DNA from: Schmidtea polychroa
Taxonomy: Eukaryota
Reading direction: 5' to 3'
Length of the DNA: 64,000 nt
Assembly (NCBI GenBank): GCA_044892525.1
Contig: CM097885.1
Span: forward strand, 218,674,001-218,738,000
A program made the position numbers and the translations under genes. The notes beneath the pieces were generated by a model. It had not been told where the DNA came from. It ran no database searches and saw only the letters and a program-made list of their open reading frames with translations. Of the stretch, positions 9,044-44,327 are shown in pieces. Every line of letters starts with the position of its first letter. Within the stretch, counting starts at the first letter, position 1.

Positions 9044-11447
9044 CAGCGGTTCTCCCCTAGGGGACCGCGACGAACTAACGCATATTTATTTTTTTAAATC
9101 ATTTTTTTAAATCATTTAAAAAAAACATCAAAAAATAATTTAATCATTTCTGTTATTAAAAATCAATTCAACATTAGCCCCCTTACGGGGTAAAACTGCG
9201 TTTTGTGTCTCCAATATTTTGCGTGCATGTTGAGGTTGTATGCTAATTTGTGACGTCATTGTTTTAAATTGTAACGTTGTCACCTCGACTCGGTCCAACC
9301 TCGAGGGTTTATATAGCAGGCCTGTCTGCTTATTCTTTGCCTTTAATTGTATTTTCTCCGAGTGAACGACGCATCACATTTAGTATTTTATTTTCTTGTA
9401 AACAGTTTGTGGTATAATAAACATTAACTTTTGCTGTATAATTTTATAAATTTATAATTTTATTTTATTTTATCGATTTTTTTAGATTTAAGATGCCCAC
9501 CAAAAAGAAAATGATATATGACATTTCATATTTACAATATGGGTTTACTGTAATAAATTCGAAAGGTGAAGAGAAACCACAGTGTGTCTTGTGTTCTGAG
9601 GTGCTGGAACCCTCTTCTCTTAAACCCAGCAAGTTAAAGAGACACTTAGAAACGAAGCATCCCAGATCAATGACCAAAGATGTCGACTTCTTTAAGCGCC
9701 AAGCCGAACGACTGCACAACTCCAGGATTGATGACACAGGAATCTGGTCGCATAACATTAAGGCTGGTCTGAGGGCGTCCTATGAGGTTTCAAGGAAAAT
9801 AGCTGCGGCCCAAAACCCACACAATATCGGAGAAGAGTTGATATTATATATATTATTATTATATATATAATATCAAATATTCTGGGATGTTCGGAGCTCA
9901 GCAAGCTAAGTTACGTTTGCCTGTCAAACGACACTGTTCGGAGGCGAATAGCAGAAATGTCCGAAAACATTCTGTCGTAAGTGGTGTCAAAAATTCAAAA
10001 CTCAACGTTCTCCTTTGCAATCCAACTTGATGAAACGACGGATGTCGCCAACTTAGCAGAACTTTGCGTCTACGTATGATATACGTATGATAAACACCTG
10101 GATGATGAATTTTTGTTCTGTGAAACTCTCAATACCAGAACAACTGCAAAAGAAATCTTTGATAAAGTGGACAGATTCTTTGAAGCGCATGATATCAAAT
10201 GGGAAAATCTTATTGGCGTGTGTACTGACGGTGCTCCAGCAATGGTTGGTTGTCGTTCTGGGTTTCAAACTTTGGTTAAACAAAAATCCCCAAACATGAT
10301 TGGTACACACTGCACTATTCATCGACAAGCTTTAATGGTAAAAACCATGCCTGACGAGTTGAAAAATGTTCTCAATCATGTGATTACAGCAGTAAATTTC
10401 ATAAAATCAAATGCACTTAACTCTCGTTTGTTTTCCGAGTTATGCAAAGAAAGTGATTCCGAAATTGAAAAACTCTTGTTGCACTCACACGTGAGGTGGC
10501 TTTCCAAAGGGAAAGTTTTAAAGAGGGTTTTTATACTCCATAAAGAAATTCAGGAATTTTTGAAAGATACCAAACCAGACATGCACACAACATTCTCCGA
10601 TGTCCGTTTTCTTATTTCCTTGTCATTTTTGGTAGACATATTTGAATCCGTAAATTATATCAATCTGGCGCTGCAAGGAAAAGATATCACAGTGCTACAT
10701 TGTCATGAAAAATTGATGGCTTTCAAAATGAAGCTCGAACTATGGATTACAAAGTTAGAGAATAAGAATTTTGCTCCATTTCCGCAGCTGAATACATATA
10801 TTGATGAAAATGAGCTTGAAGTCGATGCCGATATTCTTGAAATAATGAAACAGCATGTATTCGTTCTTAGCAAAGAAATGTCTCACTATTTTCCTGATCT
10901 GCGAGAATTTGAAAAACGCCATCGGTTTATCACTAACCCATTTGAAGTATCCATTAGTGACCTGCCCTCGGACGACAATTTAGTTCAGGAACAATTTATT
11001 GATTTAATAAACGATGAGGGTGCAAAACATGTTTTCCGTGGAACTTGCTGTAGTGACTTTTGGATTGAAATGGCACTGTCCTATCCTGATGTTGCAAAGA
11101 TGGCTCTAAAAGTCCTCATTCCATTTGCAACCACCTATGAGTGTGAGTCGGCTTTTTCTACACTACTTACAATTAAAACAAAAGCAAGAAATAGATTATG
11201 CGCGACAAATGATATGCGAGTTGCACTGGCCAAGACAAAGCCAAACCTATAAGCTCTAGTTCTGGAAAAACGCCTGCATCCGTCGCATTAAAATTGTTAT
11301 TTAACTTTTACGATGTAATATTTTCTCAATATATATGTTTTATTTGCTATACCTTTTTTATTTTTTATTATCAGGGGTCCGCAAGCTATCTAACAATTTT
11401 TAAAGGGACCGCCTCGCAGAAAATTTCAAAGAATTTGAGAACCGCTG
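9044..11447 (+). mobile_element. full-length but inactivated hAT Buster/Charlie transposon
   Basis: 11-bp TIR CAGCGGTTCTC / GAGAACCGCTG; 8-bp TSD CTTTAGCT / CTTTAACT with the central TA typical of the Buster clade. Confidence 0.92.
9493..11291 (+). pseudogene. Buster-type (ZBED5/SCAND3-like) transposase pseudogene
   Basis: KPQCVLCSEVL..SSLKPSKLKRHLETKH, AIQLDETTD, GVCTDGA, VRWLSKG, PFATTYECESAFS, natural end HPSH*. Broken by a frameshift near 9850, internal stops and a frameshift near 11250. Confidence 0.9.
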
Positions 11448-16163: not shown

Positions 16164-17160
16164 TGTTGGGTTTCTGGTTAATTTAAGTCGGTTACCTCTG
16201 ACTCCTCGTGTCCTTTAAATCAAAACAATAACGACCCAACGTATATTGAAATAACAAAATTCACAATCTTTTCTCACCACTTTACAATCAATAATCAAAG
16301 TTACGTTTGACCGATTCTCAGCACGGCGTTGATGCTTTGTAAATAGATAATATTCACCTTTTATTTCTTTAGATTCTCTTGACCCACATTTTCCTCTTTT
16401 TCTGTTTGATTTGATTCTTTTTCACCTTTTCGTATTCCTATTCTATATCTTCTTTTCCCTAATCTCCTTAATTAGTTTTTACTTATTCCTAACCCTAGAT
16501 GAGGCAAAATGCCGATTTGCTCTGATTTTCCCCTTCCATATATACTCTTCGAAATCGGGATGACAAATGGTTATTGCCGAGCCAATCTTTCACTTGACAT
16601 TTGCTTCCACGTATCTGCTTCGGCTGTCACCCATAATGGTCCAACGAACAAAGATAATTAATGGCCCGTCCGGCCTTTCTACACGCACTATCTTCTCTTT
16701 GCTCTTTTCCAATTAATCATTGTGTCAAGCTAATAGGCCCAAATCTTCCTTCTGTTTACCTTTCTTCTTGTTTACCCAGCTCGGGTTTCCCATTAGCTTG
16801 GGTTTTCTATTAGCCAATTAATTAATTAATTAACGTTTTCTGTTTTAACACATTTGAATGCTTTTCGACCTTTTCTAACCGTTTTCTGATAAATCCCTAA
16901 TCATCATCTTGTTGACCATTAGCTGATCTATACCTGTCCCGTTTTCCTAATTCGATTTCGATGATTTTACAATTTATCGATTTTTCACGGATTTCCGGAT
17001 TCTTGCCTTTCGCAATTGCTTTTGACATTTTCTAATACTGCTTCCATCACACTTTCCTTTACTATCAATTATGTGCATGATCACGCTTTTATTTGTCTTT
17101 TCTCTTCATTTATTAACCTAAATTTCATTTAAATTTATTTTAATTTTACAGACCTCAACA
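16164..17160 (-). mobile_element. solo LTR related to but diverged from the full-length provirus LTR
   Basis: TGTTG...CAACA termini, perfect 4-bp TSD GACT, shared motifs ctgactcct..tgt and gctcgggtttcccattag. Confidence 0.88.
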
Positions 17161-17179: not shown

Positions 17180-18123
17180 ACATAGAGCTCACCTATACTC
17201 TAACCTGTTTATGTTTATGATAACGTTTAGCGGACAATTACGATATGGGAGACATAAAAGAATCAGTTAAAGAAACAATTTGACAATGCGAGGCATGTCA
17301 AAGAACGAATGTTGTGACAAAAAAGATGAAGGAAGAGACAATAAAGCTGACAGCAGAGGTGCCGTGGGAAAAAGTGTACATTGATATATGTGGCCCATTA
17401 CAGAAAACATTCAGAAAGAAAAGATATGTAGTCGCAATGATTGATCAATTTAGCAGATATATATCTCTGACTGCTGCCGCTAAACAGGATGAAGAAATGG
17501 TGAAGGAAACAATACTACAAAAATGGATTCTTAGATTTGGAGCACCAAAGGAAATTCACACAGAGTGTGGAAAAGTATTTGAATCTAAGACGATGAAAGA
17601 GTTTACAAAATCAATGGGAATTACACTATGCTTTTCAAGTCCATATCACAATAATACAAATGGTTTTATAGAACGTCAATTCAGGACAATAAGAGACTAT
17701 ATAAATGCATCATTAAAAGAAAAAAGTAGAACAGATTGGGCAGAAATCATACCAGAGATTAAATTTACCATGAATGCAACATTTCAGAAATCAATTGGAC
17801 GAAGCCCCACAGAAGTAATATTTGGAAGAAAAATAGCTCGAGAACAATTTCATAGTAAAGCGACGATTTCACAAAAAGAAGATACAAGAGAAACAACGCA
17901 GACAAGGAGATCATTCAATATTGGAGATGAGGTTCTGGTAAAAGTAGAATCAAGAACGAAAGACAAGGAAAGATACGAAGGGCCATACAGAATAATGCAG
18001 AAGATCCATGATCGCCGATATCTGCTACAAGACCAAAGTGGGAAAATGCTTCAAAGAAATGTTGAAAAGATGAAGAAATTTCTTAAAGAAGGGGGATGTG
18101 AAGTGCTTTCAGCAGAGGGTTAA
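17180..18123 (+). pseudogene. integrase remnant of a different, older Ty3/gypsy element, with PPT
   Basis: CEACQ zinc-finger half, VYIDICGP, IHTECG (second catalytic D replaced by E), NGFIERQFRT, RYEGPY (GPY/F); purine tract AAAGAAGGGGGA (18085-18096) followed by TG. Confidence 0.85.
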
Positions 18124-18595: not shown

Positions 18596-21500
18596 TAGGG
18601 TTGTTAATATCGGTTTTTCGAGCAATCCGATTATCGTTTGTATAAATCCGATTTTAAACCGATTATCGTTTGCACTTTGCATAACCAAAGCTACTTACAT
18701 TATTACTATTCACGCGCGTGTATAGTATAATTAGTTTTATTCAAAGTTTATACCACACACAAGGAGAATATGAACTGACTGTTTATGTAAAAAGTTAAAG
18801 CATATAAGTAAATTTGTTTTCAATTTCTTCGGTAATTTTCCCTGTATATACTAAAGTATAAATCAAAATAAAACTTTCCGGTGCTGCGGTGGCCTTATTT
18901 TAAAATTAAACATAAACATATCGAAACCATAGATATCAAAAACAAAGATTCCAAAGTGTAAACATTTAAAAGTAAGTACTAAATTCGATTTTATTTTTAA
19001 ATATCAGACAAGTCCTGGTTCATATTCAAAAAGACCAAAGATTCTGCATGATCTGGAAGGAGCCGGTTACGAAGCTTGGTTATCAGACGTCCAGTGGCCG
19101 AAAATAATCGTTCCGATTGCACTGAGGTTGCAGGAATGCATAAGAACTTCCGGGCAAGAATAGCTGTTTTGGGGAAAAGTTTCATATTATGTTTCCACCA
19201 CTCCAGGGCTGTTTCACTTGAGTTTGTCGACCATGATGATTTGACGTAATATTCAAAGTCGGATTCCTCTGGCGCCTGTTGTGCTGCACTATCACCAAGG
19301 AGAAACATAACTGCATCATGATTTGGTCGTGATCTTTTAGTTGGTGGGATCATGTTATCTTCATCCCGACTCGTCTTCGGCTGTTCGGGGCAATCTGGCA
19401 GCTGTCTGATGAGATGACGGACATTTTCATACGCCAGCTTTTTGAAATCGTCCGGAAATCCAGGAAGATGCTTATACATCGGATCGAGAATTGATGCAAC
19501 AACGCATTCGTTTTTTGCTGTTTCATTATTTTCTAATCCAAAACGACGTGAAATATTCTTAGCAAGATCTCTCTTAAATTCACCCATAATGTCAGAATCT
19601 TCTTCTTTAATGGTTAAATGATTTTTCACGAGTCCCCATAACATGGGAAAAACACAAGAGGCTGATGGCTGGCTTTCGGCTGACATGACGGACGTCACGA
19701 TCTGCAACGCTTTTAAAACAGGGAGCAATTCAGTCATCAGTTGCCAATAATCGTCCTTCATGCCCAACGTTTTGGCATCGTTCAATTTCACCACGTTTTT
19801 GTCGCTCAATACTGCAACTACTGGCCATCTCAGTTCTACTAGTCGTTCAAACATGTCATAGACGCTGTTCCAACGAGTCTTACAGTGCTGAATAAGTTTT
19901 AGTGGCGTTTTATCCTTGTCCATGGACAACTGTCTTTTCAGGAGCTCCCCCGTTGCCATTGGGCTATGTGAGAAATGTCCGACTAGTCGTGCTGCAGCTG
20001 ATATACATTTGGAAATTTGATGATATGTGACAACATGGGAGCCCATTGCATTATTGATGCAAAGTTGCAATTTATGCGCCGCACAGTGAACGTCAAACCA
20101 TCCATTGAGATTGCCTGCATGATTGATGTTGGATGCACCATCATGGACACATGCAACAATTTTTTCTTTTATTGACCATTCATCAGCTATACTACATAGA
20201 TGGTCAGCAATGACGGCTTGTATGTGGCGTTGAGTCATCAGAATTGTTCCAAGAACAGGCGTCATCATATTCCAGTCTGTATCAATGTAGCTTGCAGTAA
20301 AACTGAGATAAGCTTCATTGGTGACACTAGTCCAGATGTCGGTAGTGATCGCAATGTCCTTGACATGTTCATGGATATATTTCGACATTTTGACCACTAA
20401 ATTATTTTTCATTGCTGTTAGTCGTGCTGTCATCGTCTGACGACACGGAGGACGATATCCTGGCTCCACTATCGCCATCAATTCACGGAAGGATTTCGAT
20501 TCCACGAGCGAAATTGCCAACATATTTTCGGAAATCAATCTCGCAACCGCAGCCGTAATTTTTTCCTGTTTACTACTCGGACAATTTCTTTGTGTTGTAA
20601 TCAATGCAGTCAATCGTGTTTGAGTATTTGAAGATGTTGTTAATCCACCATGTTTGCTACGCAAATGTGCATGCAAACCAGTCGTAGTACCTCCACTCCT
20701 ACTTATTTTCTGTGTACAGAGCTTACATTGTGCCATCGTCGCCGAAATTTTATCAAAATTGTCCCAGACGTCAGACTTATTTATACGGAAACCCATAAAT
20801 TTAAACTGATTTTGTATTGATTTAGATAATATAAAAAATGTTTATTGAATATTACGTAATATTCAAACTAAACCGCAATTTTCAATTATATGGATTAATA
20901 ATAGCTACTACAAGAGCAACTAACTGAATGAATGGAAATTATATAACAGTTTATATGTTTATAGTAGATTTGAACCATGGATTGGAATTTCCAAAATCTT
21001 GTCATAAATTAAAATCCCGAAAATCAATTTACTTCGACCTGAGCAGCCTCTTAGACATTGTCAAAAGATCAACAAACTGAATAAATTTGAGAATGGTCGT
21101 CACCCAAACTTGAAGTTTGTCCTAGTGTCCAACTCTCTTCCATATTTCAATGGGTAAACAACCAAACATTATGATTCGAGGAATGGCACATGTCTTTCGA
21201 TCTCTTTACATCTGGCTTTCATGAAGATGATGCGGTATGCAATTCAGTTTATTCTGGTTTTAAGTTAAAACCAGAATAAACTTTTAACCGGTTCGCAGAT
21301 GCAAGATATCAGATTGCAAAATAGACCTTCACGGACTAAACACAAAATCGCCGACCTCGGCCACATCTAGTCCCTGTCAAGGGGGTTAATAGCTAAGCTT
21401 CTGTTATGGACTGCAGTAATCAAATCTTTGGTGGCCGATTTCGGCAACAAATATCAGGTTGCCAAACAAAACCGGCAAAATGCAAATACTAAAACACACA

Positions 21501-26619: not shown

Positions 26620-27592
26620 CTAGAAAATAAAATGAAGGTAAATTGGCTAGAATTTTATGATAAATATGATATCTTAAACTACAAAGTAAAATATAACAAA
26701 ATGGAATTGGTAATAGAATTTCCTGAACTGCATTTATAAATAGTGTTTTAAACTTTAATTTATTTTCATTCCTTTATCTTCATTTCCTGTATGAATATCA
26801 ATAAAATAAAACATTAATCTAAAGTCTTCGAAGATAAAAGAAACTGAAAAAAAACATGATGAAAATATAAAATAAATATTCTATTATTAATTTGAGAAAT
26901 CAAGAGATCAAAACTATTAAATAACAAGATACCTTTCAGCTATCAATACTGGAGTAAAAGGATGAAATTTGAAAATTTTATAAAAGAGATTTGGAAGCAA
27001 TTATGATATCATTTTTATGTTGTCCGCAGAAATGAGCTGTTTTGCAAATATTTAGAAATATAGGTTCTAATAGTTATGGAAAAGTGGCTCTATAATAAGT
27101 GTATACTACAAATTCTTTAGTGAAATATTATTATTAATTTAGGAGAGTAAAAATTTAATCAAGAAGCCTCGAGAAGTCTAAATTATAATTGTAAAAATTA
27201 TAGTGTATACCGACCCCAGCGATTGCAAAATATCAGTGGGTGAAAATTTCATATTGCCACCTTTGATTTTAAGAAATAATAAATTATTAAGATTTACTTG
27301 TCCATATAATAATACCAAATTATTTTATACTAAGAATAGTAAACATAAATTTTAAAAATAATGATTCATGCAAAATATGACGCCTTTGTGGCGGTCAAGC
27401 ATTGTATATGCCTACTACTAGCCATGGTGTATATCAATGATGGTACCAAGTGAGATTTCGAGTTAACGCGCAAAGCTGTTTTAAATCAGCACTAATCTAG
27501 CTTACGATATTCCTTAATTGGTTTTAGCCTAAAATACTATGTATTAAATTACATGTTCCAATAAGTAAAATAGATCTCCAAGTAATTATTTA

Positions 27593-28447
27593 TGTTGGGT
27601 TTTTAATGCAAGTCGGTACTACGGTCTGACTCCTTTGTGTTCTTTTCCAAATAAATAAATAAACAAATAACCCAACACAAAATCTTTATTGACACTGATG
27701 CAGTTACACTTTTACACTTGTATTAGTTTACTCACACTTGATACAATCAGGTTTTGTCTGCACTTTTCAATTGCCAACAAATCTCACACAGGGGTAGATC
27801 TTCCAACGGGAGATATCCCTTTCTGGTACGTTCGATTTTTTTTTTATATGGTTTACTTTCGACTAACTTTGATATTTCCTTTTTCACTCGCGTCAACCTC
27901 TGTTTTCTTTTCTTCGACCAACTGGCATTTTGTTTTCTTGTCAGTTGCTTTTATACTCGCTTGTTAATTGACTTTATTTTTGCCAATTATTTTTGGTTTT
28001 ATTTCCCCCGGGCTTCCTCTTGGAGGTCTAATTTAATTGAAGGGAATTTGCTCATTTCCTTTGACGGCGCTTTTTATCCGGCTAAATTAATTGCCTTCCC
28101 GAAATTGGATTTCTCAATTCGCTCGGGTTTTCCATTGTATCGGGTTTCCCATTAGCTCGGGTTCTCCATTAGCTCGGGTTTCCCATTAGCTCGGGTTTTC
28201 CATTAGTTAATTAATTTTTGTTTTTTTGTAATTTATTCCTTTTAGGGACCCCCCATTGATTTTATTTTATTATAGCTGAACTCGTCTCATTATTCAGCAT
28301 CCGCCCATACCAGTTTCCCCCAGAAAATATTCATTTTTAAAATTTTGATTTTTTAATTAATATTTTGTACTTTAAATTTTTATTTTGAATTTGGTGTTTT
28401 TGTCAATTTTCACCTCATTTTTGTGCCTCTCTTGTTGAACCCCAACA
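27593..28447 (-). repeat. 3' LTR (855 bp)
   Basis: TGTTGGG...CCCAACA; differs from the 5' LTR by 2 substitutions and 1 homopolymer indel that I could see. Confidence 0.97.
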
Positions 28448-28461
28448 TATTTCCCCCCTTT
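28448..28461 (-). other. polypurine tract
   Basis: AAAGGGGGGAAATA immediately before the 3' LTR. Confidence 0.92.
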
Positions 28462-30625
28462 AATTTAGATTCGACCTCGAATCTGTACATTTCTTATGGT
28501 TCAAACAACAACAACAATAGTACCAATACTAATAACAATAACAAAATAATAATAATGTTCTTATAGTTGAAATAACAACAGTGATAGCAACAGCACTTAC
28601 CATTACCATTACCATTATTAAATTATTATAATACCAATAAATTGAGATGAATTTTTAAATGTAAAGGGTGAATGTAAATAAAACATTGAAATAAAAAAAA
28701 TTTGCTTAGAAATTTTCAAAAATTTTACCTAATAGATTTTTGTTGGATTATTTACAAGACAAAAAAATATTAATGTAAAATTTGATAAATTTTCATAATT
28801 AACTATAAAAATATTTGCAATTATCTTAAAATAAATATTTCCCAACAATTAAAACTGTTGAAATAAATTTCATTTTTGTTGATTAAAACATTCTTGTATT
28901 TATTGAAATTAGAATTGATGAAATTTCTCTATTAGTCTAAAATTACTTAGTTGAAAGCTCATTGATATTAATCAGTTTAGTTAAATGCCCAGATGGGATG
29001 AGGCAAATTCATCTGCTGTGTCAGTGGCAGAATTTCAGTGGGCCAATATCGAATTACTCAATTAGATTGCAGTTGAGGGCAATTAAATTATTTACGAAAT
29101 TGGTTTGCGCTTTTGACGGGAGATTCAAAAAGAAAATGATAATTAAATCCACCCATCATCCGATTGAATTTTTTTTTCAAATCTACAATTTGGACAACTA
29201 ATTCAAGGGTAATTTAATTTTGTTTCGCAAAATAGATTTATTTTTTTTTCTTCTTTCAGTTCTTACACGAGATAAGGAGAAAGCCAATCAGAAGAAAGGA
29301 GGGAAGAAACGAATTTTTTTTACTTTATAAAGGCAATCACATTTCCATATCATTTTTCATTGTTTTGTTAATTTTGAAATTATTACCATAGAATATTATT
29401 ACCTGATTATACCGAAATTATAAACAGATTATTCTTAGTTAACATAGAAATATAGTTGGACAAAACTAATAATAAAGTTCGTAAATAATAATTTTATTTT
29501 ATTTTGTTTTTTTCATTTCCCTCTTAGATTATAGATATTTAAACAGAATTTTCGGCACTGGCTTTTACAAGTGTTTGGACAAATATAAAACAAAATAAAT
29601 GATCAACAATGCAAAAAGGAAATGAATATTTTACAGCTTTTGTTTTTTCACACAGACAATCCGAAAAATCACCCCCGAACCGACGGCGCACCGTCTCATC
29701 CACTCCGATCTGACACAGCCGATGTGGACAGCCAAGCCCCCACCCATCGTTGGCTTGACAAATATTAATTTTATTTTTTGAAGTTAATTTTATATTTATG
29801 CATTAAAGTAAGTAAATTTTCTTTTCAATTGAATTTAATAAAAATTTTTGTAAATTTTCTTTTTGATTGAATTAGTATATAAAAATCAATGCAATGTTTA
29901 TAATATTTTGAAACCAATTATAAATTCGTATAATAAACTGCTAATGAATTTCCAACACACATGTAAGTTGATGTGTAAATGATTGAGAGGTTTTCTTTTT
30001 ATTATAGGCGGTTTTATTAAGTGAAACATGGATAATAGTAACAACAACAACAATAATACTAACAATAATAATAATAACAAAACATAAACAATTCTGAAAA
30101 ATTAAAAATTAATTATTTCATTTTAAATAAAAGTTCATCAAAATATTTTCAATTTTCAAATCAAAATTTCTGAAATTTATTTTTTCCCTTAAACTTTTGT
30201 GTCTGTTACTGAAAATGAAATTTGATAATATTTCAACCGAAAATTAGTCGATAAAAACGTAGACATTTTATTTTTGACTAATTAAACATAACAAAACATC
30301 TCAATGCTTTATACTGGAAGATGGGAATGAAATTGTCTAATGAATTTTTAATAATAAATTGTTATGATTTGTGACAACCTGTTTATGTGGCTCTTTAAAA
30401 CTACTCATTTCCAATTGTTGTCCAGGGTAGCCAAACCCCGACAATTGGAAATGTGTTTGTTGTTATACACAATAATAAGTTTATTTATTTATTTAATCAT
30501 TTATTTACTCTCAATTATTTACTTATTTATTCTTATTTTTGGGGTCTAACTGATGCGCTGCCAATAAATACATGAGACAAAATCGAGTTCACAATTATTT
30601 ATTTTATAAATACAATATATAAAAA

Positions 30626-32095
30626 TTAATCCATCTTTATTTCTAATCGTTTCGTTTCATGCCGATATCGTATTATTGTCTCTTCGCGTTCATATACTAC
30701 ACCATTGACAGTGACAGTGTCTCCGACATCAATGTTCGAAGTTGTTTTTCTCTTTTTGGATTTTCTACATTCTGGCATTGGACCATATTCAAGTGTTGGA
30801 TGTATCCTTATCATCGAAATGCTTTCCATTAATGCGACACCTTCTTCCGCAATTTCTAAGAATGATTCATTGGCCCACTTCACTTGAATCAATGGATTTT
30901 CATTATCCATCGTCACATTCTCCTCGAATGTTAAATCAATTTCTTCAGATTCCATTACATCTTCAATTGGAATTTGCGTTAGTTTTTCCGGTATTGCAGT
31001 TGATGTTGATTCAATTTCCCGAAGCTTCTTATATTCGTCCCACGAATATCGCTTTGACGGTTGATTTTTGGGCATCGGTATGTCATCAATCCATTGACTT
31101 TCTACTTTCTGGTATACCTTGCGTATACTTTTCACGTCCTCGAGAGCCGAATGAATACTCATCTGAGTCTGTTCTCCACATATTTCTTTCACCACTGTTT
31201 GTAATTTGAACCATTCTCCCCTTATGGTTACTCCCATGTTCTGAAGTATTGGTGCTGCTGCTAGATCTCGAATGCCGTACAATTGTTCAATCCATATCCC
31301 CAAGTATTGTAATTCTGCATGTAAATCATGGCCGATCAATATCTTGCCCACTGTCAAGCGTTGAATTTCTTTTATTGCCACGTATTGATCACATTGGTTC
31401 CTGCTAGCCACTTCTGTAATTCCATGGATCCTTGAATTAAAATGTCGGATTTTTCCTCTTGGAGTGAGGTATACATCTTTTACTACTTTTCCATAATAAT
31501 TCATAATTGCTATTGCTAAAGGGATCATTTTCCCTTGGTCTGATGTGCCATATTCAGCATCAATGAATAATATTCTATTGCGGATTTCTTCTAGATCCAT
31601 TTCTTTTCGGAGAAACGACATTTTCTTTTTCAACATTTCCTTTGAAATTTTCAATAACATTGGGTCTTCTCCTTCAATTAGATGCATCTGTGGTACCTCA
31701 TCCGCTTCATTCTCAGTTCTGATTTCCACCACCAACGTTGTCTCCTCATTCGCTGCTCGTAGTGTTCTCCACATGAAGTCCTTCTGCAGCTTCCATGATG
31801 TGAATTTTCGGAGTTGCCACCATATTGTATTATCGTTCTTCAGCACTTCCACTGTACCTCTGATCACGTGTATGTGATATTCTTCCTTCTGAGACAACTC
31901 AATTTCATCTGTCAATTTCAATTCTGAATTTCTCCTTATTGTAAACATTCGTATCTTCATTCTTCTGTCATCTATCCGCAAATAATTTGGAATTTGTAAA
32001 TTTTCATTGATTTCGTATAATTGTTGGCTGGCATGATTTTTCTGCATCTTGAAGTAACTGTCGTAGGTGGATCTTGCCCATTGTACTTGTTCCAT
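30626..32095 (-). CDS. proviral accessory ORF (489 aa) with ISG20/REX4-like DEDDh 3'-5' exonuclease domain
   Basis: ILFIDAE (Exo I), IHGIT, KILIGHDLHAEL (Exo II), HSALED (Exo III) with ISG20-like spacing; intact ORF; TTTTAG acceptor with 5 nt between it and the ATG. Confidence 0.85.
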   Translation of the reverse strand: MEQVQWARSTYDSYFKMQKNHASQQLYEINENLQIPNYLRIDDRRMKIRMFTIRRNSELKLTDEIELSQKEEYHIHVIRGTVEVLKNDNTIWWQLRKFTSWKLQKDFMWRTLRAANEETTLVVEIRTENEADEVPQMHLIEGEDPMLLKISKEMLKKKMSFLRKEMDLEEIRNRILFIDAEYGTSDQGKMIPLAIAIMNYYGKVVKDVYLTPRGKIRHFNSRIHGITEVASRNQCDQYVAIKEIQRLTVGKILIGHDLHAELQYLGIWIEQLYGIRDLAAAPILQNMGVTIRGEWFKLQTVVKEICGEQTQMSIHSALEDVKSIRKVYQKVESQWIDDIPMPKNQPSKRYSWDEYKKLREIESTSTAIPEKLTQIPIEDVMESEEIDLTFEENVTMDNENPLIQVKWANESFLEIAEEGVALMESISMIRIHPTLEYGPMPECRKSKKRKTTSNIDVGDTVTVNGVVYEREETIIRYRHETKRLEIKMD

Positions 32096-32527
32096 TTTTG
32101 CTAAAATAGTTATAATTTAACGTTTGAATTTAATTTACTTTTAAAACTAGGGCTGAGATGAAGTATCCGAAGGATACTGTCCCAGCTACTAGCTGTATAA
32201 ATAATAATAATAATAATAATTACCGTTTAGTTAATTGTTGATATATTTTTTTTTTTTGAAAATTAATGGAGTTTAATGGATTTTACCCTCTTTTAATACC
32301 CTTATGAAAATTCCCTTAACCCCGTTTTTCTCTCCCCCTTAACACAGCGCTAACCAATCAAATTGGTTCTTTCCGTTGACATTGAAAAGTGCAGATTCAC
32401 AAGTAAAATAAAATGAAATATTGATCATATCCATAATGAAATAAATATTAATAATATCCATAAAATATTTATACTATATTACTACTACTACTTTATCAAT
32501 TTTTGCATGCAAAGTATTTATGTCTTA

Positions 32528-34602
32528 CTACACAAATGTTTCTTCATAAACGATCCAAGGTCTCGCAATCTCGGATCGATTCGTAGAAGATTTGGGTATT
32601 GTTCGAAATTCAATTAGCACAATGATAATGAGAATAATGAGAGAGATTGTTATAATGAGAGTAGTTATTAATAATGTTACACACACAATTTCACTGTCAG
32701 TTTTTAATGACGATATGGTTTTGTTATTAGTCATTGACTCATTGATGCTAGAAAAGATGATTACGTTGACAGAGCTAGGGGTTCGGTTGGACTGATTTGA
32801 TTTGTTTCGATTTCCATACTGCGAGTTAATAGATGGAATTTGCACAATTTTATTTTCCACTAATGTTAATTGCCATAAATTTGAAAATAGAGAACGTCTA
32901 TAGTATTTTATTTTAATGAACACAAATTTTGACGTCGATATTGGTGAACGTTGACGAAAAGTTAATATTTGAGATTTATTTTTTTCATTTAATATCGATT
33001 GAATTTTTCCATAATAATATAAAATAGCTTTTTGATTGGGCTCCGCTTGTCGGGTAACATTCACTAATTGATTGAAAATATGAAAAGTAACCCGATTTGT
33101 TTCATTAACTAATCGTATCATATGTTGACTAGAGTGTATTCTGATCCATTGACTATCAATTTCAGTTCCGTTTTCATATAAAGATTTTTCATAATAATGA
33201 ATCAGAATATTATAGTTATGATGTACTTTTAAATTTGCATACTTTATAAAGGGTTTTCTGCTATTCAATGTATCTATCGCATAATTTTGAAAAACTGCTT
33301 TTACTTGTTGGGATTCCTGGGGTTCCCAAAATATGTCAATTCCATTTACCAGTGGTTCAATTGATACTCGATTATGTAATCTCTTTGTCCAAATATTAAT
33401 ACGTATAAGATTTTGTATTTTTGTATTATTACTTTTCGAATCCAATTGCGTAATTAACCAAGGGTATTCATAATTCATTGTTAATTGTCTAGCCACATAA
33501 ATATTTTTGGTGCTGTTCAATTTTATTGGGGGTTCGAAATAGTTTATTAGATTATCTATCTCTATTTCTTCTGCTCCTCCAGCATAATAAACCCAAACTA
33601 TTTGAGTACATGTTGAATAAATATGAACTTTGTCTAATAATACAACTGTATTAGTTGCATATAACGGGAATACTCTCACTGCATTTACTGACATTATATT
33701 GATAATCATTACTGTTGTAATCAATAAAACTTTATTGATGTAACTCAATGGAGCAGGGTTTTTTGTAAACTTTTGTTTAATTACTGGGTTCCTTGCATCT
33801 TTATTTGGTTTTGATCTCAATGGATAACGTGATTCATCTTCTATTATCTTCTTGCATCTGTTTACATGAACGATGATTGTCCCAGCCTTTTTATTGTTTT
33901 GTGGACGCAATTTTAAGTTAGTCTCTGTCGTATCACACACTAGATATGGTCCTTTAAACGGTCGTTGCAATTTCGTTGACAAGCCTTTTGTTGGTTCTGG
34001 TTTGTTTATATACACGAGATCTCCAATTTTAATGTCATGCGCCCGTGCGCGTTTATCATAGCATTCTTTATACGCTTCTTGATGATGCCTTATGTTAAGT
34101 CCAGCTTGGATCCATACTGACTGTAGTCTTTCATGCATAGCTATTTTATAATCTGACACATCCATATATTGGGAAATAGGTGACTGAAATTCTAGATCGA
34201 CTGGCATATTGTTTCGCCGTAGATACATGAGATAAAAGGGTGTTTCTCCAGTGCTTTCATTTACTGCATTCCGGTATGCAAATAGGCATGGTTTAATGAA
34301 TAAATCCCAATCCTTTTGTTTCCTATTTACATAGGATGATATCATATTAATTAGTGTCCCATTAAATCTTTCAACTAGACCATCTGTTTGTGGATGATAT
34401 GGTGAGGTACTAAGTTTTAATATACCAAATAAATCTGTGATTGATTTAAATAATTCACTCTGAAAATTTGTTCCTTGATCTGTAAGTAATTTCTTTGGTG
34501 CTCCGTATCGAAAAATAATATTCTCCACAAATATTTTCGCAACTGTTTCTGCTTTCTGATTTGGCATTGCATAAGCTTCTGGCCATTTAGTAAGATAATC
34601 GC
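32528..34602 (-). CDS. polyprotein C-terminal part: integrase core and GPY/F, then signal peptide, glycosylated ectodomain and TM anchor
   Basis: DYLTKWPEAYA, LLTDQG, HPQTDGLVERFN, FKGPY, IVHVNRCK; then VLLITTVMIINIMSVNA and IVCVTLLITTLIITISLIILIIIVLI. Joined to the upstream ORF by restoring one T in the run at 34603-34607. Confidence 0.9.
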
Positions 34603-37600
34603 AAAAACGATAATGTATTTGTTGCCATTTGTTGTTTCTGGCAATGGACCAACGATGTCCATTGCTGTCATTTCCATTGGCGCCTTTGGCACTGGCATAG
34701 GCTTAAGCGGAACTTTTATTTTCCGTCCCGTATTTCGTCTTGTTAGGCATATCTCACACGTATGACACCATTGTCTGACATCTTGTTCCATCGTTTTCCA
34801 ATAATATTTCTGTTTCAATCTTGATAATGTTTTTCGCGCTGATAAATGCCCTCCTAATGCTCCATCGTGATACAACAACAGCAATGCTTTTCGATGTTTT
34901 GTCGGAACAATAATTAACAAATTTTCATTTTGTACACATTTTAACAAACCATCATGAATAATGTATTTATGGTTCTCTTCGGCAATATGTTTCCAGTCAC
35001 TCTCCTTTTTGATTGAGACAGCATGTTGACGTAACTGATTTAATTCCTCGTCATTTTCCTGATCATCTTGTAATTTTTCGATATTATTTACCGTTTTAAT
35101 TGCCAAGAATATTGTATTTTCGCAATTTTTCTCATCTTGATCAACATTATTTTCTACGGGTATTCTCGACATAGCATCCGCATTTGCATTTGATTTTCCT
35201 GTACGATACTTTATCTCGAAATCATATTCTTGTAACGCAATTGACCACCTAATTAATTTACTGGCCGAATCTCTGTGCTTCATTAGCCATTGTAACGGAT
35301 TGTGATCTGTAAAGACGACAAATTTTCTGCCCACTAGATATTGTCGAAAAGTAGTTATCCCATATACCAATGCTAACGTTTCCTTTTCGATTGTTGAATA
35401 ATTCTTTTCATGAGGTTTCAATGATCTGCTGGCATAAGCAATTACATGATCTTTTTCCCCTTCTACTTGCTGTCCTAATACCGCGCCTAATGCGAAATTA
35501 CTGGCATCTGTCATTAATATAAACGGTTTTTTAAAGTTCGGACATCTTAATATCGGCTGTTTTATTAAGCTTTCTTTGAGTTTATCAAACGCTTCTTGCT
35601 GAGCTGTTGTCCATTTAAATTTTGCTTGCTTTTTCAATAACATGTTCAAAGGTTGTGCTACGTGTGAGAAACTTTTAATAAACTTTCTGTAATAACTGGC
35701 TAATCCCAGAAATTGTCGAACCTGATCTACATCCTTGGGAATAGGATATTTCCCAATTTTTTCTACATTTTCTGGATTTGGTTGCAAACCTCGACGCGAA
35801 ATGATATGACCCACATAAACGACTTCAGATTTCCCCCATTCACATTTGGAGGGTTTTATTTTTAAGTTTGCTTCTAACAATCGCTTGAATACTGTTTCCA
35901 CATCCTGCAAATGTTCCTGAAAACTATTCGAAAATATTATAATATCGTCAATATACACTAATGCATGTGGTATATCGCGCAAAACAAAATTCATACCTCT
36001 CTGAAATGTAGCAGGTGCTCCTGTTAATCCGAATGGTAACACGTTAAACTCATATAGACCCTTCCCATCTGAAAATGCAGTTTTCCTTCTATCTTCCTCT
36101 TTGACTTTAAATTGATTGTATCCTTTATTAAGATCTATTACCGTAAAATATTGCACCTCCCCCATCTGATCGAACATTTCCTGTGGAACAGGAATAGGAT
36201 ATGTATCTTTTCTCGTTACTTGGTTCAATTTTCGATAGTCGACACAAAATCTTAAATCACCGTCCTTCTTTTTAACTACTACTATTGATGATGAGAATGG
36301 TGAGGAACTATCTCTTATTATATTGAATTCTTTCATTGCTTTGATTTGCCGATCACTTTCTTCCTGATGTATGTATGGTATTCTGTACGGCCGTAATTTT
36401 ATTGGGGTTTCGTTGAGTAATGGTATTTCATGCTCAATCACCTGAGTGAGTCCCAGATCATACTCATGTTTTGCAAATACATTTCTATATTTCTTTAATA
36501 ATGCACCGAATTCTTGTTTTTGCAAATCCGTCAAATCTTTGCTTGTGATCTGAGGTTCTTTATAAATTTTTATATTTCTCGGTAACTTCTGAGCTTCCTC
36601 TGATTTGATTTTTGTTAATTTTCCCAATTTGGTTTTGGGTTTTATCTCAACGGATCTTGCACTATAATTCGCTATTCTAACTGGTACTGACTTATTTTGG
36701 ACTTTCACTACTTCATCACACATAGGCACATCGTATTTTTCAACCAGCTTTTGATTTGGCTCAAATATGTACTCCTCATCTGAGACCCTCATAACATCTG
36801 CATAGTATATTACTTCGCTTTTTGGTGGTACTTCCAATGTTTGGTTTAGAAATACCTCTCCTACTTCAGGCACTACTTCACCCATTTGTCCTTTTATTAG
36901 TTTTCCAGTTCTCAGATCAAGAGAGATTCCATGTAGTTGCTCCATGACATCCATGCCAATTAGACATTTTACAGGACTTTTTCTCATCACTGATACCCAA
37001 TGAATTATTTCTTGCTCTCCAATTATCAGTTTAACTTCTAATTTTCCAACAATATTTAGTGCATTATGTGACATTGATTTAATAATGTGATTCGTTGGTT
37101 TTATTTTGGCTTTCTCCTGATACGTCAAGAAACTTTCCGCTACTATAGTATGACTTGAGCCTGAGTCTAATAAAGCTTCCACTTTTCTCTTGTTAAACTG
37201 TATGTTTATTCGAGGTTGTTTTCCTCCTACTACTGTTGTCATTAGTGCATAGCTGCATGGTAGACCAAGCATATTCTTTCTTTCAATTTCAGCACTCGTT
37301 GGTTCAATCTTCTCTAATTCGATTGTGATATTATCTACAGGTTTCATTTCTTTTAATTGTTCATTTGGATATATTGGTGCTGTTGGTCTAAATGTCGGGG
37401 TATACCATCTACTAAGAGTATCAATCCCGCTTAATTTTGGCATTGGTTCAAGCAAGAACCTGGACTCTGGCTCTACTTTACTCTTTATTACACTTTTTCG
37501 AAAGCATTTATACTCCGATTCCCCGTTGTTGTTATCATCATTATGATCGTCGTTTTTATCTTCCGACTGACACGTCGATTCCTCACTTTTTCGGCCATTT

Positions 37601-40600
37601 CTTAATTGTGCCCTTACTCTTGCCATTTCTTTAAATTGATGATCTGTAATAAAGAATCTAGCCAACAATGGAATACAACCAATAACTAATTTCCATGACC
37701 ATCCCGATATTGCGTATATTCGATGTACTGACAACATTTGCGACACTACCACCTTTGCCGTTATCATAATCACGTAAATTCCAATTAAACCTGCACATGC
37801 TTGTCCCAAAAACATGAACTTGCCCCAAATCTTTTCCATCGTTTTATATGTAGCTCGTTTGAAATGATCAGGTGTTAGCAAATTTTCGTAATTTACTGTT
37901 CCTTCTCCATTCGGTAATACTGTGTCAATCATTTCTGAAATTATCCGTTCCTTTTTGGATGGAAACAACAAATTCCTTTGAGCTTCTTCGATATCTTCGC
38001 TTGCATACAAGCCCATTTGTGCCATTTTGTTTAGTGATGTGAAATTTATCAGGTATTCTAAATTTGTTAATTCTAGTTTGTCTGGAGTCTTGACCCCACG
38101 ATAATCTGGTAAGGCTATCCATGAGTCTGTAGCTAATCGGTATAAAGGGGCTAATAATCGATTGCATTGCAAAAGTTTTGGTTTAGTTTGTTCATCAAGC
38201 AAGATTCTAGTTATCGGTTCCATAAATCGTACCTTTCCCCCAAAGCTTACTGGTAATTCATTCGTACATTTTTCGTATTTGGCAATTTTCACTGTGACTT
38301 CTTTGCATTTGTAACTGTATAATGCTTCTCCAAATATTCTCGCAAACACTCCATTTTCTGATATTAGCATAGGTGCTACTAAATTTGGATTCGTAATTGC
38401 CATCGCCATCCGATTTCGGAGAATCTCTTTATTCAACTTACAATCGTTCAGAATCATTTCTCTATATACATTTTCCATGATGTTTTGACTAAAATGAAAC
38501 AAATAATCAATTTTATTATTAAAATAATGAGTAAGTTTAATGTCATCTCTGTGAATTTTAATTTTTGCTTCTTCCACAACATTTCTAGACACGTAAACAC
38601 CTTTATAATTTGTTACATATACCATTCGACCACATTTATTTGTGATTTCCTTTTTTATAAATCGCATTCCATCTGCTGGTAACGTAGACATTATAACTGT
38701 TCCCATTTGCTTTGTCCATACTGGGGTTGATTTAATGGTATTATTTGGTCTATAATTCATAGTGAAATTATCTGGTTTATCTCTAAACTGTTCTCCTACT
38801 AGCTCTTTAAAGTTCATAGTTTTTAAGTGCGCTAAATTACACTTATTTGTTTCTACATTATAAACAAGAATCGATTCCCCTGTTTGACAATGTGTTTGTT
38901 TCATATTACAGAATGGATGAGTTTGTAATTTTCCCGTATCATCATCGAAAGCTCCTTCGAACTCTCTCAACTCCGTGAGATACTCTTCTAGCACCACTGT
39001 TTGCTGAATAATTTTACCGTTCATTTTATATGGTTCACCTTCACAGTCGCCATTTGCTTTCATTACTCCCTTTACAATTATTGTTTCTCGTATTCTATGG
39101 TTCAATTTTGCCTTTAAACGAATTTCTGGACTTATTTTTAATTCTCCTGTTTGAAATGCTGCTAGACAGTTTTCTGGAAGCACCTCGACTGGCCTAGGTA
39201 TCGCATGCATTTTTATGAGTGACGTATGGCTCCATTTACCACAATAGAATACAAATGTTGTATGTTTGGCAATACACTCTCTCACTTGAGTTCTTCGCAG
39301 ATCAGACTCTTGATACACATAATATTTTACGTCATTTTCTATTTTTAAACTGCTCGGATACGCACCTGGGCATTCCGACATATCTACTACCGAATAGACT
39401 TTTCCCATTTCAGTTTGGGAACAATCGTACGCAACTAAAGATGATGTCTGTGTAATTATTGCACAAAACGTAATCACCATAAACATCGCCCATGGAAATA
39501 TCATAGTTTTTCTTAGTTCTGGCTTAACTCTTTCATTTACTCGTCTTTGGGGTGGACTCATTTCTTGCTTCTCATTTTTCTTTTCTGTTAGAGATGAACA
39601 CAGTGTTTTCCAACCACCTTTTTCGTTTACCCAGCTCATTAAATATTCGTTTACTAGCCGGGCAGCGATGTCTATCAAATTTTCTAACTTGTCGGACCTT
39701 GCGAACGTATGCGTTCCAATTTCTAAAACAACATAAGTTAAAGCTATTATTATAACTTCCTTATTAATTTCATTTTTTGCCAAATTTTCAATTACTGATC
39801 TCTCGCAGAATGTATTCTCTTCGCCAAATTTCTGCATCACTTCAGGAAGCCTATTCTTCATCTCTTTAACTATTTCTTTCAGTTCATCCTCTACCTCTAT
39901 TTCTATGTCGAACATTGGATATACTGCTTTAACGAGATGTTTCAACATTTTCTTAGTTTCGTCGACGTCCTGTTCTAGCCTCACTAAATATTTCTTTATT
40001 TCATATAAAGTTCTAACTTTCTTATTTTTGATTTCACCATTTATTTCGCCTTCAGGTACAAGTGGCTCTCCTTGTACGTCTGGTTCCGTGGACTGATCTT
40101 TGTTATCAGGATCTTTTTGCTCATTATCACTAACGATTTCATCAATTTCTTTATTTCCCTTAACTTTTTCATCTTGTTCCTCTGTGTCAGGCTTGTTAGA
40201 CTCAATATTTACTTCTAAACTCACTCCTTTTACTACGACTATATGGTTCACTAAATATCCCACTCGTCCATCTCGGATCAAATATCCGTTTTCATCCAGC
40301 TCTTGTGGTACACACCCACAATCATATAGGTATTCATCATCGTCAAGTTCTTCACCTTTGTACATTACTATAATAATTCCATCTTTTCCCAGCGTTTCAG
40401 CCGCTCTCTTCCACAATTTTCGGACCTTTGCACACCAATGCTCGTCTACATATTCCGTTTTGCCATATCCCTCATAATCTAATGCTATCAAAAATGGCTT
40501 TAACTCTACTCTTGCCTTTCTGAGCTCCTTGCCCAACCTTTGCAATAAACTTCTTAATAACTTGGCATATCTGGTTTTCACATGTAAATATGGTCGTATT

Positions 40601-42717
40601 GCATTCACTATTTTTAGTTTATCGTTTTCCTCCATTTCTAATTTCTCAATAATCTGTAACTTCTCATTGATTTCATCTTCATCTCCAATATATAACGCAT
40701 CATTTAATTCCTCTAATATCTCCCTTGAATTCCTTTTGTCTATTATTTTACTACTCATTATTTCATCACTAGTAATTACATTTTCCATTTTTAATTCATT
40801 TGTACTTCCTGGAATAAATCCACAATCTACCAAAAATTCGTCATTTTCTAACAATCTCTCATTAAATCTCAACTCTATCATGCATCCTTCCTTTTTTTCT
40901 TTTAATTTATTCTTTAAATCATTTACACAATCATTTGCCTCACAACGACAACATAGTACACTTTTATCAATCTCGTTTACTACTTCCACCAAGATGGAAT
41001 CTAACCCTGTTTTCTCTCTCAAAGCTTTTCCAAATATTTTCATTAATTCTTTAATTTCTTCTTTATACCTTGGATTCATATTATAGTAGTTAACGCACAA
41101 GCTAATTACACTTTTTATCTTTCTCATACTCAAAGATATTTGACTTAATTCTCTCAACGATTTGATCACTTTAGCCGACTCTATTTCATTATTTCCGATT
41201 AGTTTTTCGATTCTGGTCATTATCATTGTTGCTTTTTCACTTTCTAAATCATCTTTTATAACTCTCCTTTTCGACTCTTTTTCATTCAATTCCTCTTGCG
41301 ACTCATACATCATGTGATTATTGTAGTCCTCTTCTGATTCAAACTTTGACATCAATCGATCCAAACGTCGACCCATTTCTCTCACTTCGCTTTCAATTCT
41401 TTCATTAAAATTATCTGGCTGAATAAAAGCTACATTATCCATCTGCGGTTTGTCACTCTGAAACCTAATCGATTTCTTTAATATGGGCCTTTGGAATTTA
41501 TCCACATTTCTTGGACATGATCTAGCCATGTGTCCATAACTTCTGCATGAATGACATTGAATTTGTCCTTGTAGATTTACTTTATCTCTCTGCGGTGATG
41601 GTGAAGTTGATGTTGATCTTGACCTGGCAAAACAATTTCGTGACACATGCCCTTTTCTTCCGCAATTAAAGCATTGTAAGTTATCATTAGTTCTCGGCTC
41701 ATTAATGTTCGCTTTAGTGAAACTTTTCGCACCATTTCCTTTTAACCAATCAGGCCACATTTGCCTTGGACTCCGTTGTACATTATTTTTGGACCAGCAT
41801 TGATTGCTGTCATGTCCCATTCTTTGGCAATTATCACACTGAATCGGAATTGGGCTTCTCTGTACTCTATTTTTAAACCAGCATTGGTTAACATGGTGTC
41901 CAATCCTTTGGCAATGACTACATTGGATGGGACCTTCCTTTCCATCTGTTTGAATATCTGTTGACTTGTTCGACTCAAATTTGGATCTAAATTTTGGTGA
42001 TGGACTACTTGTTTGTTGAAAACGATTGTTTCTAATTGGGGTTACTGATCTTTCGCTTGCGCCTGAGATGACTGCAAACGATTCTGATTTTGACTGTGTG
42101 CTTTTTAAATTTAGCTCAATTTTCATTGCCTTTTTGATCAATTCATCAAAGTCATTAAAATCAACATAGCATAGAGCCTTTTTAATTTCTTTCTTTACTC
42201 CTGACAAGAATTGATCCTGCAATAATTCTTTTACCTGCTTTGCCATCTCGGCCTGTTCTGGTTTCACTTCGAACGCTTTCTCTGCAAGAGTTGATAAATG
42301 ATAAGCAAACTCACTTACCGATTCCTCTGGCTTTTGTACGCGGTTATAGAATTTCTGTCGCATTATCCGTTTGATATCCCCTCCGATTAATTTCGTAGCT
42401 AAAGCGTCTTTCAACTTGGTCCAGTCATTTGCTACTATTCTTTTATCAATTTGTTGCCACGCTTCTCTGGCTGCTCCTTTTAGGTATAGCGGTAATCTTT
42501 GCACCATTATCGATTGGCTCCATCCATAGGCCGTCGCATACATATAGTAATCTGCCATGAAATCGACAAATTCCAGCGGATCTCCACCGTACTGATCCAC
42601 AGGTAGTTTTTGGCAACTCGCATAATCATTGCCTTCCCTGGCATTCCCCACAGAAACTGTGGACACCGGTGTTTCATCATTATTATTTGTATTATTAACT
42701 TGTCTTTGGGTACTCAT
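34603..42717 (-). CDS. Gag - accessory domains - Env-like glycoprotein - protease - RT - RNase H - integrase N-part polyprotein
   Basis: First ATG at 42717; LPLYLKGAAREAW and FYNRVQKPEESVSEF (gag), 4 x CX2CX4HX4C, AYDC glycoprotein, LLDSGSS (PR, D at 37165-37167), LRFCVDYRKLN and YIDD (RT), TDASNFALGAVL (RH), H..ALGGH..C..C (IN zinc finger). Confidence 0.95.
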
Positions 42718-43100
42718 TATATTCTCTACTAGTTTTTGGCTTCTCAATTTATAAAATGATCTGGTTAACACAGGTTTTACTCGTCTAAAATTTAAAGTAT
42801 TACAATTACAAAATTTACCTTTCGTTTTAATTTTGACTTTTCAACAATCACTCGTTACAAATTTTCCCACTTTGCTTCAATAATAAATTCACCACTTTAA
42901 TAATTCTCGAATAATGTTCACCACTTTCAAATAAACGTTTCACTTCAATATTTATTTATTTAATTATTATTATCTTTTTCCAAATTTTTTTTTTTTTTTT
43001 TTCGATACTTTACTAATCTCAACAAATTTTCACCGACCTTTTTATTCCTCGGTATCACTCAAATATTATCACAATTTCAACAAATCTTCACCGACTTTTG

Positions 43101-43118
43101 ATCACGTCGGGCTCACCA
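43101..43118 (-). other. primer-binding site for tRNA-Trp
   Basis: TGGTGAGCCCGACGTGAT, 4 nt inside the 5' LTR boundary; 17/18 to the avian sarcoma-leukosis virus tRNA-Trp PBS TGGTGACCCCGACGTGAT as recalled. Confidence 0.85.
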
Positions 43119-43214
43119 AATATGTTGGGTTTTTAATGCAAGTCGGTACTACGGTCTGACTCCTTTGTGTTCTTTTCCAAATAAATAAATAAACAAATAA
43201 CCCAACACAAAATC

Positions 43215-43220
43215 TTTATT
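43215..43220 (-). terminator. LTR polyadenylation signal (also 27685-27690)
   Basis: AATAAA about 95 nt before the LTR end; AATAAA at the equivalent position in the diverged LTR near 52515. Confidence 0.6.
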
Positions 43221-43476
43221 GACACTGATGCAGTTACACTTTTACACTTGTATTAGTTTACTCACACTTGATACAATCAGGTTTTGTCTGCACTTTTCAA
43301 TTGCCAACAAATCTCACGCAGGGGTAGATCTTCCAACGGGAGATATCCCTTTCTGGTACGTTCGATTTTTTTTTATATGGTTTACTTTCGACTAACTTTG
43401 ATATTTCCTTTTTCACTCGCGTCAACCTCTGTTTTCTTTTCTTCGACCAACTGGCATTTTGTTTTCTTGTCAGTTG

Positions 43477-43484
43477 CTTTTATA
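43477..43484 (-). promoter_or_regulatory. LTR TATA box
   Basis: TATAAAAG downstream of the U3 tandem repeats and upstream of the AATAAA. Confidence 0.65.
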
Positions 43485-44327
43485 CTCGCTTGTTAATTGA
43501 CTTTATTTTTGCCAATTATTTTTGGTTTTATTTCCCCCGGGCTTCCTCTTGGAGGTCTAATTTAATTGAAGGGAATTTGCTCATTTCCTTTGACGGCGCT
43601 TTTTATCCGGCTAAATTAATTGCCTTCCCGAAATTAGATTTCTCAATTCGCTCGGGTTTTCCATTGTATCGGGTTTCCCATTAGCTCGGGTTCTCCATTA
43701 GCTCGGGTTTCCCATTAGCTCGGGTTTTCCATTAGTTAATTAATTTTTGTTTTTTTGTAATTTATTCCTTTTAGGGACCCCCCATTGATTTTATTTTATT
43801 ATAGCTGAACTCGTCTCATTATTCAGCATCCGCCCATACCAGTTTCCCCCAGAAAATATTCATTTTTAAAATTTTGATTTTTTAATTAATATTTTGTACT
43901 TTAAATTTTTATTTTGAATTTGGTGTTTTTGTCAATTTTCACCTCATTTTTGTGCCTCTCTTGTTGAACCCCAACATTTATGACAATGTGTAAATTAATA
44001 GTGACAAAAGCAAAAGGCAATTTTTAGTCAATGATCCTTTGAAAAAATTAATTTTTAAATAATATATTATTTATTTTGAATATCATTATTTGATTTGATT
44101 TAATATATTTTATTTATTAATTTTATTAAGCAGAGGCGTTAAAAAGAATTTAAAAAACGAAAATCTATCAAATGACGTTCATTTTTCTAAAATATCTTAT
44201 ATAAATGACTTTGTTTTTTTTTAAAAAAGAATGTCAAAATTTAAAAAAATGTAAAATATTCAAATCTATTATTAATTTCATGTATAAATAAATTTAAATT
44301 ATTTTGTTTTTGTTTAAATACCCAAGA

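Follow-up and report, generated by a model that had tools for sequence, protein, structure and literature searches.

An Env-like glycoprotein, whose ectodomain is predicted to have the class III (gB-like) fusion-protein fold, lies in frame between the Gag and protease of a planarian LTR element in the window (the whole 64,000-nucleotide stretch of DNA analysed here). The element is a young, multi-copy, endogenous-retrovirus-like member of the Ty3/gypsy type and constitutes a new family. Since env-before-pol order, in-frame position and gB class have all been published for relatives, it adds one more family to a known layout. On balance we think it probable, as argued below, that its polyprotein is threaded through the ER as a single chain and that Env is the fusion protein of an enveloped particle.

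The element and its long frame

The host element occupies 16,384 bp (27593-43976). Its features, in the direction of the coding strand, are as follows.

27589-27592 and 43977-43980: 4-bp target-site duplication flanking the element
43123..43976, minus: 5' LTR, 854 bp, TG...CA, with 2 substitutions and 1 indel relative to the 3' LTR
43101..43118, minus: primer-binding site of 18 nt for host tRNA-Trp(CCA), to whose 3' end it is complementary
41500..42717, minus: Gag, with capsid region and four CCHC zinc knuckles (aa 266, 294, 349, 388)
40213..41250, minus: tandem pair of modules, both with a helical part and a ubiquitin-like domain, from profile search
39589..39975, minus: divergent Bcl-2-like domain, ending in a BH2-like W-x4-GGW
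39439..39504, minus: internal signal sequence, aa 1072-1093, with a predicted cut directly before LVAYDC
37819..39438, minus: Env ectodomain, 540 aa, predicted class III (gB-like) fold
37738..37818, minus: Env transmembrane (TM) helix, aa 1634-1660, hydropathy 2.19
37648..37737, minus: GWS-containing helix after the TM, hydropathy 1.42
37222..37647, minus: Env cytoplasmic tail and spacer to the protease, with PTAP (aa 1778) and YPNEQL (aa 1783)
36931..37221, minus: aspartic protease (PR; Pfam RVP, E 5e-6)
35224..36276, minus: reverse transcriptase (RT; YIDD) and RNase H (RH) (RVT_1, E 6e-33; RT_RNaseH, E 2e-39)
33734..34908, minus: integrase (IN; H2C2, core, GPY motif), frameshifted in the window copy, frames overlapping at 34417-34702
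32528..33733, minus: second predicted type I membrane protein (signal, 330-aa ectodomain with 11 sequons, TM, short tail)
30626..32095, minus: ORF2, 489 aa, with an ISG20-like DEDD exonuclease domain (aa 171-339)
28450..28461, minus: polypurine tract ahead of the 3' LTR
27593..28447, minus: 3' LTR, 855 bp

The LTR pair differs at three of 855 columns. The termini (TG...CA LTRs, tRNA primer site, polypurine tract, target-site duplication) are those of Ty3/gypsy elements, as are the PR-RT-RH-IN order, the gypsy-type domains and the GPY/F motif. The element does not belong to BEL/Pao, a group that the preliminary description had named as having also captured such glycoproteins: pol is of the Ty3/gypsy type, and a Pfam scan to E 1 returned gypsy-type families only, with no BEL/Pao-type Gag, protease or RNase H. 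Relatives of the element are likewise placed within Ty3/gypsy by Chary and Hayashi (eLife 2026; PMC13524379).

Several features of the LTRs and surroundings may be recorded here. A 17-bp repeat is present in four to five copies per LTR (28094-28223 and 43623-43752); a 46-bp look-alike of it (16778-16823) lies near an integrase fragment at 17284-18123 on the plus strand. Between ORF2 and the 3' LTR there are ~2.2 kb of AT-rich sequence (28448-30625) that hold no long ORF. The source genome carries tRNA-Trp genes in a long tandem array with a 284-bp period (C4, from 55022433 onward), and this is the tRNA that fits the element's primer site; tRNA-Trp pattern matches number 821 genome-wide, and a 14-base pattern for the primer site is matched 1,816 times in total. 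Outside the element the GC content of the window is ~30% or lower, and there are two hAT transposase ORFs, one with a BED finger (18997-20841, minus) and one on the plus strand (10080-11252).

The preliminary description, which gave no strand, had reported an Env-like glycoprotein in frame in gag-env-pro-pol order, and this is what the minus strand encodes: a stop-free ORF of 2766 aa (42717-34417) holds every motif quoted there. The frame runs from Gag through two ubiquitin-like modules, the Bcl-2-like domain, signal, ectodomain, TM and spacer to PR-RT-RH-IN, and Pfam matches fall along it in the order zinc knuckles, weak Bcl-2, Monjiviricetes_fusion, protease, reverse transcriptase, RNase H and integrase. 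The signal starts with MIFPWAMF at aa 1072 (39504), LVAYDC follows at aa 1094 (39438), the TM, FMFLGQACAGLIG, starts at aa 1634 (37818) and GWS at aa 1672 (37704), and the DSG motif of the protease is near aa 1851. The frameshift of the window copy lies within integrase, downstream of env. Placement of Env between Gag and protease is thus right as to order but not as to adjacency, ~670 aa of cargo separating the last zinc knuckle from the signal and a spacer of ~190 aa separating the TM from the protease active site.

In what follows, the element in the window is family A, and B and C are sister families of the same layout in the same genome, with ectodomains 69% and 82% identical, respectively, to that of A. 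The Gag of family B gives a Retrotrans_gag Pfam match at E 4e-8. A profile of six cargo modules finds ISG15 (E 4.5e-5), followed by ubiquitin and NEDD8; a likeness of the helical part to TFIIS-N was considered and is unsupported by Pfam and PDB profile searches. The Bcl-2-like domain scores under the cut-off with Pfam Bcl-2 (E 0.01), reaches Bcl-xL/Bcl-2 at E 7e-5 with a seven-sequence profile, mostly via the BH2 end, and has BCL2L15/BID as Atlas leads (0.87-0.88). The same layout recurs in public polyproteins at 27-42% identity, and the same domain order in the unrelated public polyproteins P0003-P0005, P0008, P0009 and P0017. Two to four aspartic-protease-like repeats follow env or integrase in the distant relatives P0004, P0005, P0006 and P0008.

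The Env-like glycoprotein

By hydropathy, Env has the type I layout of signal, ectodomain and C-terminal TM. The signal itself has a hydropathy of 1.99, with six K/R among the preceding 15 residues, and from the sequence we infer that it is cleaved ahead of LVAYDC. A hydrophobic core ahead of [AG][YF]DC, deep inside the polyprotein, is present in all 17 homologues examined (the three families and 14 of the closest matches). From LVAYDC to the TM there are 540 aa, 14 Cys and three sequons (N1317, N1325, N1558), in line with the ~535 aa, 14 Cys and three sequons reported previously; across 114 aligned sequences, none of the 14 Cys falls below 90% conservation. Judged by its E value of 1.4e-86 (cut-off 27 bits), the match of Env to Pfam PF24664 (Monjiviricetes_fusion) is not one of chance.

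An AlphaFold2 model of the ectodomain, built from the 114 sequences, has a mean pLDDT of 91 and a pTM of 0.71, with a long helix at 302-349. In a Foldseek comparison with the PDB, each of the 35 listed matches is to herpesvirus gB (lowest E 2.6e-15, TM-score 0.38-0.44, ~11% identity), and a second structure aligner, VIA, gives Z 10.9 with 397 residues aligned at an rmsd of 6.4. Sequence search of the ectodomain against PDB chains yielded nothing below E 0.37, so that gB is reached by fold comparison only. Chu-like glycoproteins lead the matches from a viral structure library (E 1.6e-42, TM-scores reaching 0.67). As a prediction, a class III (gB-like) fold is thus well supported, by a confident model and two structure comparisons. 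The preliminary description had proposed just such a fusogen, akin to chuvirus-type glycoproteins, and had suggested comparison with these and with herpes gB; similarity to both was found, and the chuvirus kinship is borne out by PF24664 as well as by the structure library. Env is 17-20% identical to chu-like proteins and ~11% to gB. In an env tree (FastTree, midpoint-rooted, 108 of the 114 rows, the six that cover under 400 columns having been dropped) the polyprotein-type envs form one clade of nine rows with support 0.987.

Chuvirus-type glycoproteins and herpesvirus gB, as class III fusion proteins, have in common with the element's Env the predicted fold, the cysteine pattern, the signal before [AG]YDC, the TM followed by a G-W/F-S helix and a YPxL-type tail. 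They are stand-alone proteins with an N-terminal signal, whereas the signal of the element's Env is internal and its tail runs into Pol. Among the ten homologues carrying the anchor motif, TM hydropathy is uniformly high (1.95-2.64 in 10/10) and that of the GWS helix lower (0.37-1.43 in 10/10); AlphaFold2 models the GWS region as separate short helices. This helix is likely to be amphipathic and to lie along the cytosolic side of the membrane, not to cross it as a second TM. One strong TM followed by a weaker helix would keep Pol in the cytosol; with two or three hydrophobic segments near the C-terminus in 18 of 91 stand-alone-length homologues, the chain might instead cross the membrane again, and Pol would then be luminal. 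YPx(1-3)L-type motifs are known sorting or budding signals. Of 15 polyprotein spacers, 10 carry one (1.0 expected), as do 31 of 83 tails of stand-alone homologues (2.8 expected), so the spacer appears to be a retained Env cytoplasmic tail.

How Env might be made and used

The reading that we favour is an ER-threaded single chain. Synthesis would begin in the cytosol with Gag, the ubiquitin-like modules and the Bcl-2-like domain. The internal signal (aa 1072-1093) would then bring the ribosome to the ER, and the ectodomain would pass into the lumen for glycosylation and disulphide bonding. Signal peptidase would cut ahead of LVAYDC, parting Gag from Pol, and the signal stub would anchor the Gag-Bcl-2 part in the manner of a Bcl-2 tail anchor. 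The TM would stop transfer, leaving the tail, PR, RT, RH and IN in the cytosol, with Pol on the Env tail until its release by PR. Since that cut separates Gag from Pol, Pol would be packaged through the tethering of both to a common membrane, where Gag and Pol would meet, and this would stand in for the usual Gag-Pol fusion. Env-bearing particles would then bud, possibly via the PTAP/YPxL motifs, and would spread the element between cells, for example soma and stem or germ cells.

The signal stub might serve to anchor the Bcl-2-like domain, although the signal itself is independent of that domain. In eight of the 17 homologues the Bcl-2-like domain ends 47-81 residues ahead of the mature env start; in the other nine the signal is present without a GGW motif. 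Because GGW precedes the signal in only those eight, the notion that a Bcl-2 anchor became the signal is optional. Functional analogues exist for other parts of the scheme. The flavivirus C-prM-E-NS polyprotein likewise strings capsid, signal-delimited envelope and enzymes along an ER-threaded chain, although flaviviruses use class II fusogens, unlike the predicted class III Env of the planarian element. Foamy viruses, whose Env leader is a functional analogue only, package Pol without a Gag-Pol fusion. With a single frame, Gag, Env and Pol would be made in roughly equal numbers, which is wasteful by retroviral standards; further expression control may therefore exist.

The alternative that survives best retains Env as a real fusogen and derives most of it from a dedicated message, either spliced or initiated at Met-1072. 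The full-length frame would often skip the signal, and PR would cut the resulting cytosolic Gag-Env-Pol precursor for intracellular particles. Such a message would resolve the Gag/Env/Pol stoichiometry, Drosophila gypsy env does come from spliced RNA, and the signals of families A and C start with Met at -24. However, family B has Leu there, and four of the 17 homologues have no Met between -70 and -12 that could start a separate protein. The frame is, moreover, open across both junctions in many diverged families, and the open upstream junction counts against this alternative, because a separate message would not need it. We regard it as unlikely. Contigs of four public runs (guessed to be RNA; the contigs show presence only) contain no splice-type joint at the env start. 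Poly-T loose ends at 39575 and 40892 in one public run were also considered; the sense sequence is A-rich there, and they are put down to internal priming.

Less likely again is a gB fold that has been kept for something other than infection: a membrane scaffold for Pol and Gag, cell-to-cell transfer or a block to superinfection. The topology itself would give Env a role in packaging, and the transmission mode outside Drosophila is stated to be unknown (PMC13524379). Against this, conservation of the whole 540-aa ectodomain with all 14 Cys goes beyond the needs of a tether.

Copies of the element dispose of a third possibility. A query (aa 990-1806) spanning both env junctions was used to search the 781-Mb source genome. 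The 55 best of 3,492 candidates were scored, best first and thus with a bias to intact copies; all 55 match at 99-100% over the full length, 51 have no internal stop and 23 have an uninterrupted frame of at least 3,400 aa. Nineteen other copies are 99.4-99.9% identical over 3.3 kb. At least 20 public runs from seven studies contain the stretch or part of it, no RNA data set being listed among them, and a 3,988-base contig from one public run covers 37375-40200 gap-free. The ectodomain is under strong purifying selection: between A and C its dN is 0.108, as compared with 0.137 for PR and ~0.3 for the cargo (dS, at 2.66, is near saturation for the A-C ectodomains; for A and B it is saturated, and no dN/dS ratio is given). 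That an endogenous chuvirus-like fragment, or a chimera made in assembly, fell in frame inside a Gypsy element by chance has a negligible probability, for, although the closest structural relatives are chu-like virus glycoproteins and fragments of chuvirus glycoproteins are reported to be common in invertebrate genomes, it is refuted by both junctions in 55/55 scored copies (the best 55 of 3,492), by the shared layout of the diverged sister families, by the contig bridging the upstream junction and TM, and by the purifying selection. Copies and contig equally rule out the junctions as assembly artefacts, a doubt raised in the preliminary description.

Relatives and a second predicted membrane protein

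The inversion of the usual order, with env ahead of pol, is real, but it is not new. For Burro, Arkhipova and Yushenova (2019; PMC6431247) report a polyprotein that joins Gag, ubiquitin-like, BCL2, env and PR in a single frame and present it as the first of its kind, and Chary and Hayashi (PMC13524379) describe gB-type GAG-ENV-POL elements in Schmidtea, nematodes and bryozoans. Burro/GYPSM1 are giant gypsy-like planarian elements (Grohme et al. 2018, as cited in PMC6431247), and Burro RNA goes up on piwi knock-down (PMC8532177). Burro, like the window element, has Gag, ubiquitin-like, BCL2-like, env and PR in one ORF; Burro is >30 kb long with an ORF of ~4,900 aa, whereas the window element has 16.4 kb and ~3,400 aa. 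Burro carries MATH, BIR and ankyrin cargo, for which the window element has no Pfam matches, and its env is likened to gypsy Env, of F-type kin, in contrast to the predicted gB-like class III Env described here. By size, then, the window element is a compact relative of Burro and not Burro itself. The Anakin elements (Dezordi et al. 2020) are LTR retrotransposons with the same class of glycoprotein but belong to a different superfamily, BEL/Pao.

Closer still are Smed_errantivirus_1 and Smed_errantivirus_2 of Schmidtea mediterranea. According to PMC13524379 they have the same Ty3/gypsy pol, a gB-type env between gag and pol, and many young copies too (45 and 215 listed). No LTR or tRNA is listed for them there, whereas family A has its 855-bp LTR and tRNA-Trp site. 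In Env domain I-II, 198 of 251 residues (~79%, counted by eye) are identical between family A and Smed_errantivirus_1, and on that sequence measure A is a sister family of the latter. Family B (C1:110157500-110167400) differs from Smed_errantivirus_2 at five of 251 residues of the same region, also by eye. If the host genome is that of another species, this 98% match hints at a recent horizontal transfer. The main text of PMC13524379 does not contain 'bcl', 'polyprotein', 'splic' or 'exonuclease'.

Downstream of integrase lies the second predicted type I membrane protein, which in other copies shares a 3,437-aa frame with env. It matches at 97-100% in 103 of 103 scored genome copies, and the family A protein is 32% identical to that of B and 55% to that of C. 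Families A and B both have a signal-ectodomain-TM block after integrase, and a broken family C copy keeps signal and ectodomain. Three of four distant polyproteins that extend past integrase have a block of the same shape, their ectodomains being devoid of clear mutual homology. The protein has no Pfam match, and a set of 5,212 candidates contains no homologue 195-702 aa long; Atlas gives fibronectin-type-III leads only (0.85-0.89), and a model from three sequences has a pLDDT of 34.6. The tails of A and B end in E-T-x-hydrophobic, which we take to be of the PDZ-binding type, and that of B also has PPSY. The exonuclease domain of ORF2 matches ISG20L2 (E 9.5e-11) and ISG20 (E 1.2e-7); an ORF of at least 150 aa after the polyprotein is absent from the one family B copy examined and from one of two other family A copies. 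No published account of the post-integrase protein or the exonuclease was found, though Grohme et al. 2018, Sacco et al. 2022, Repbase or the figures of PMC13524379 may have one.

Herpes gB works with gD and gH/gL, and the post-integrase protein may be proposed in that role. Tentatively, and at odds that we put on the low side, the planarian elements would be infectious retroviruses with a two-protein entry machine, the gB-like fusogen and a post-integrase attachment or trigger partner. Equally tentatively, both proteins would be cut from one four-pass polyprotein, the partner being a fast-evolving, glycosylated type I protein. Were this true, the 98% match of family B might record a recent jump between species.

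The element is of value because it is young, is present in many copies and comes from a tractable group of animals, which allows the mechanism to be examined. It bears on how Pol is packaged after signal peptidase has separated it from Gag, and on whether a gB-type Env that lacks the herpes partners uses the post-integrase protein instead. Entry by gB-only elements is noted as unexplained in PMC13524379; a two-protein machine, if it exists, would answer that question of how they enter cells.
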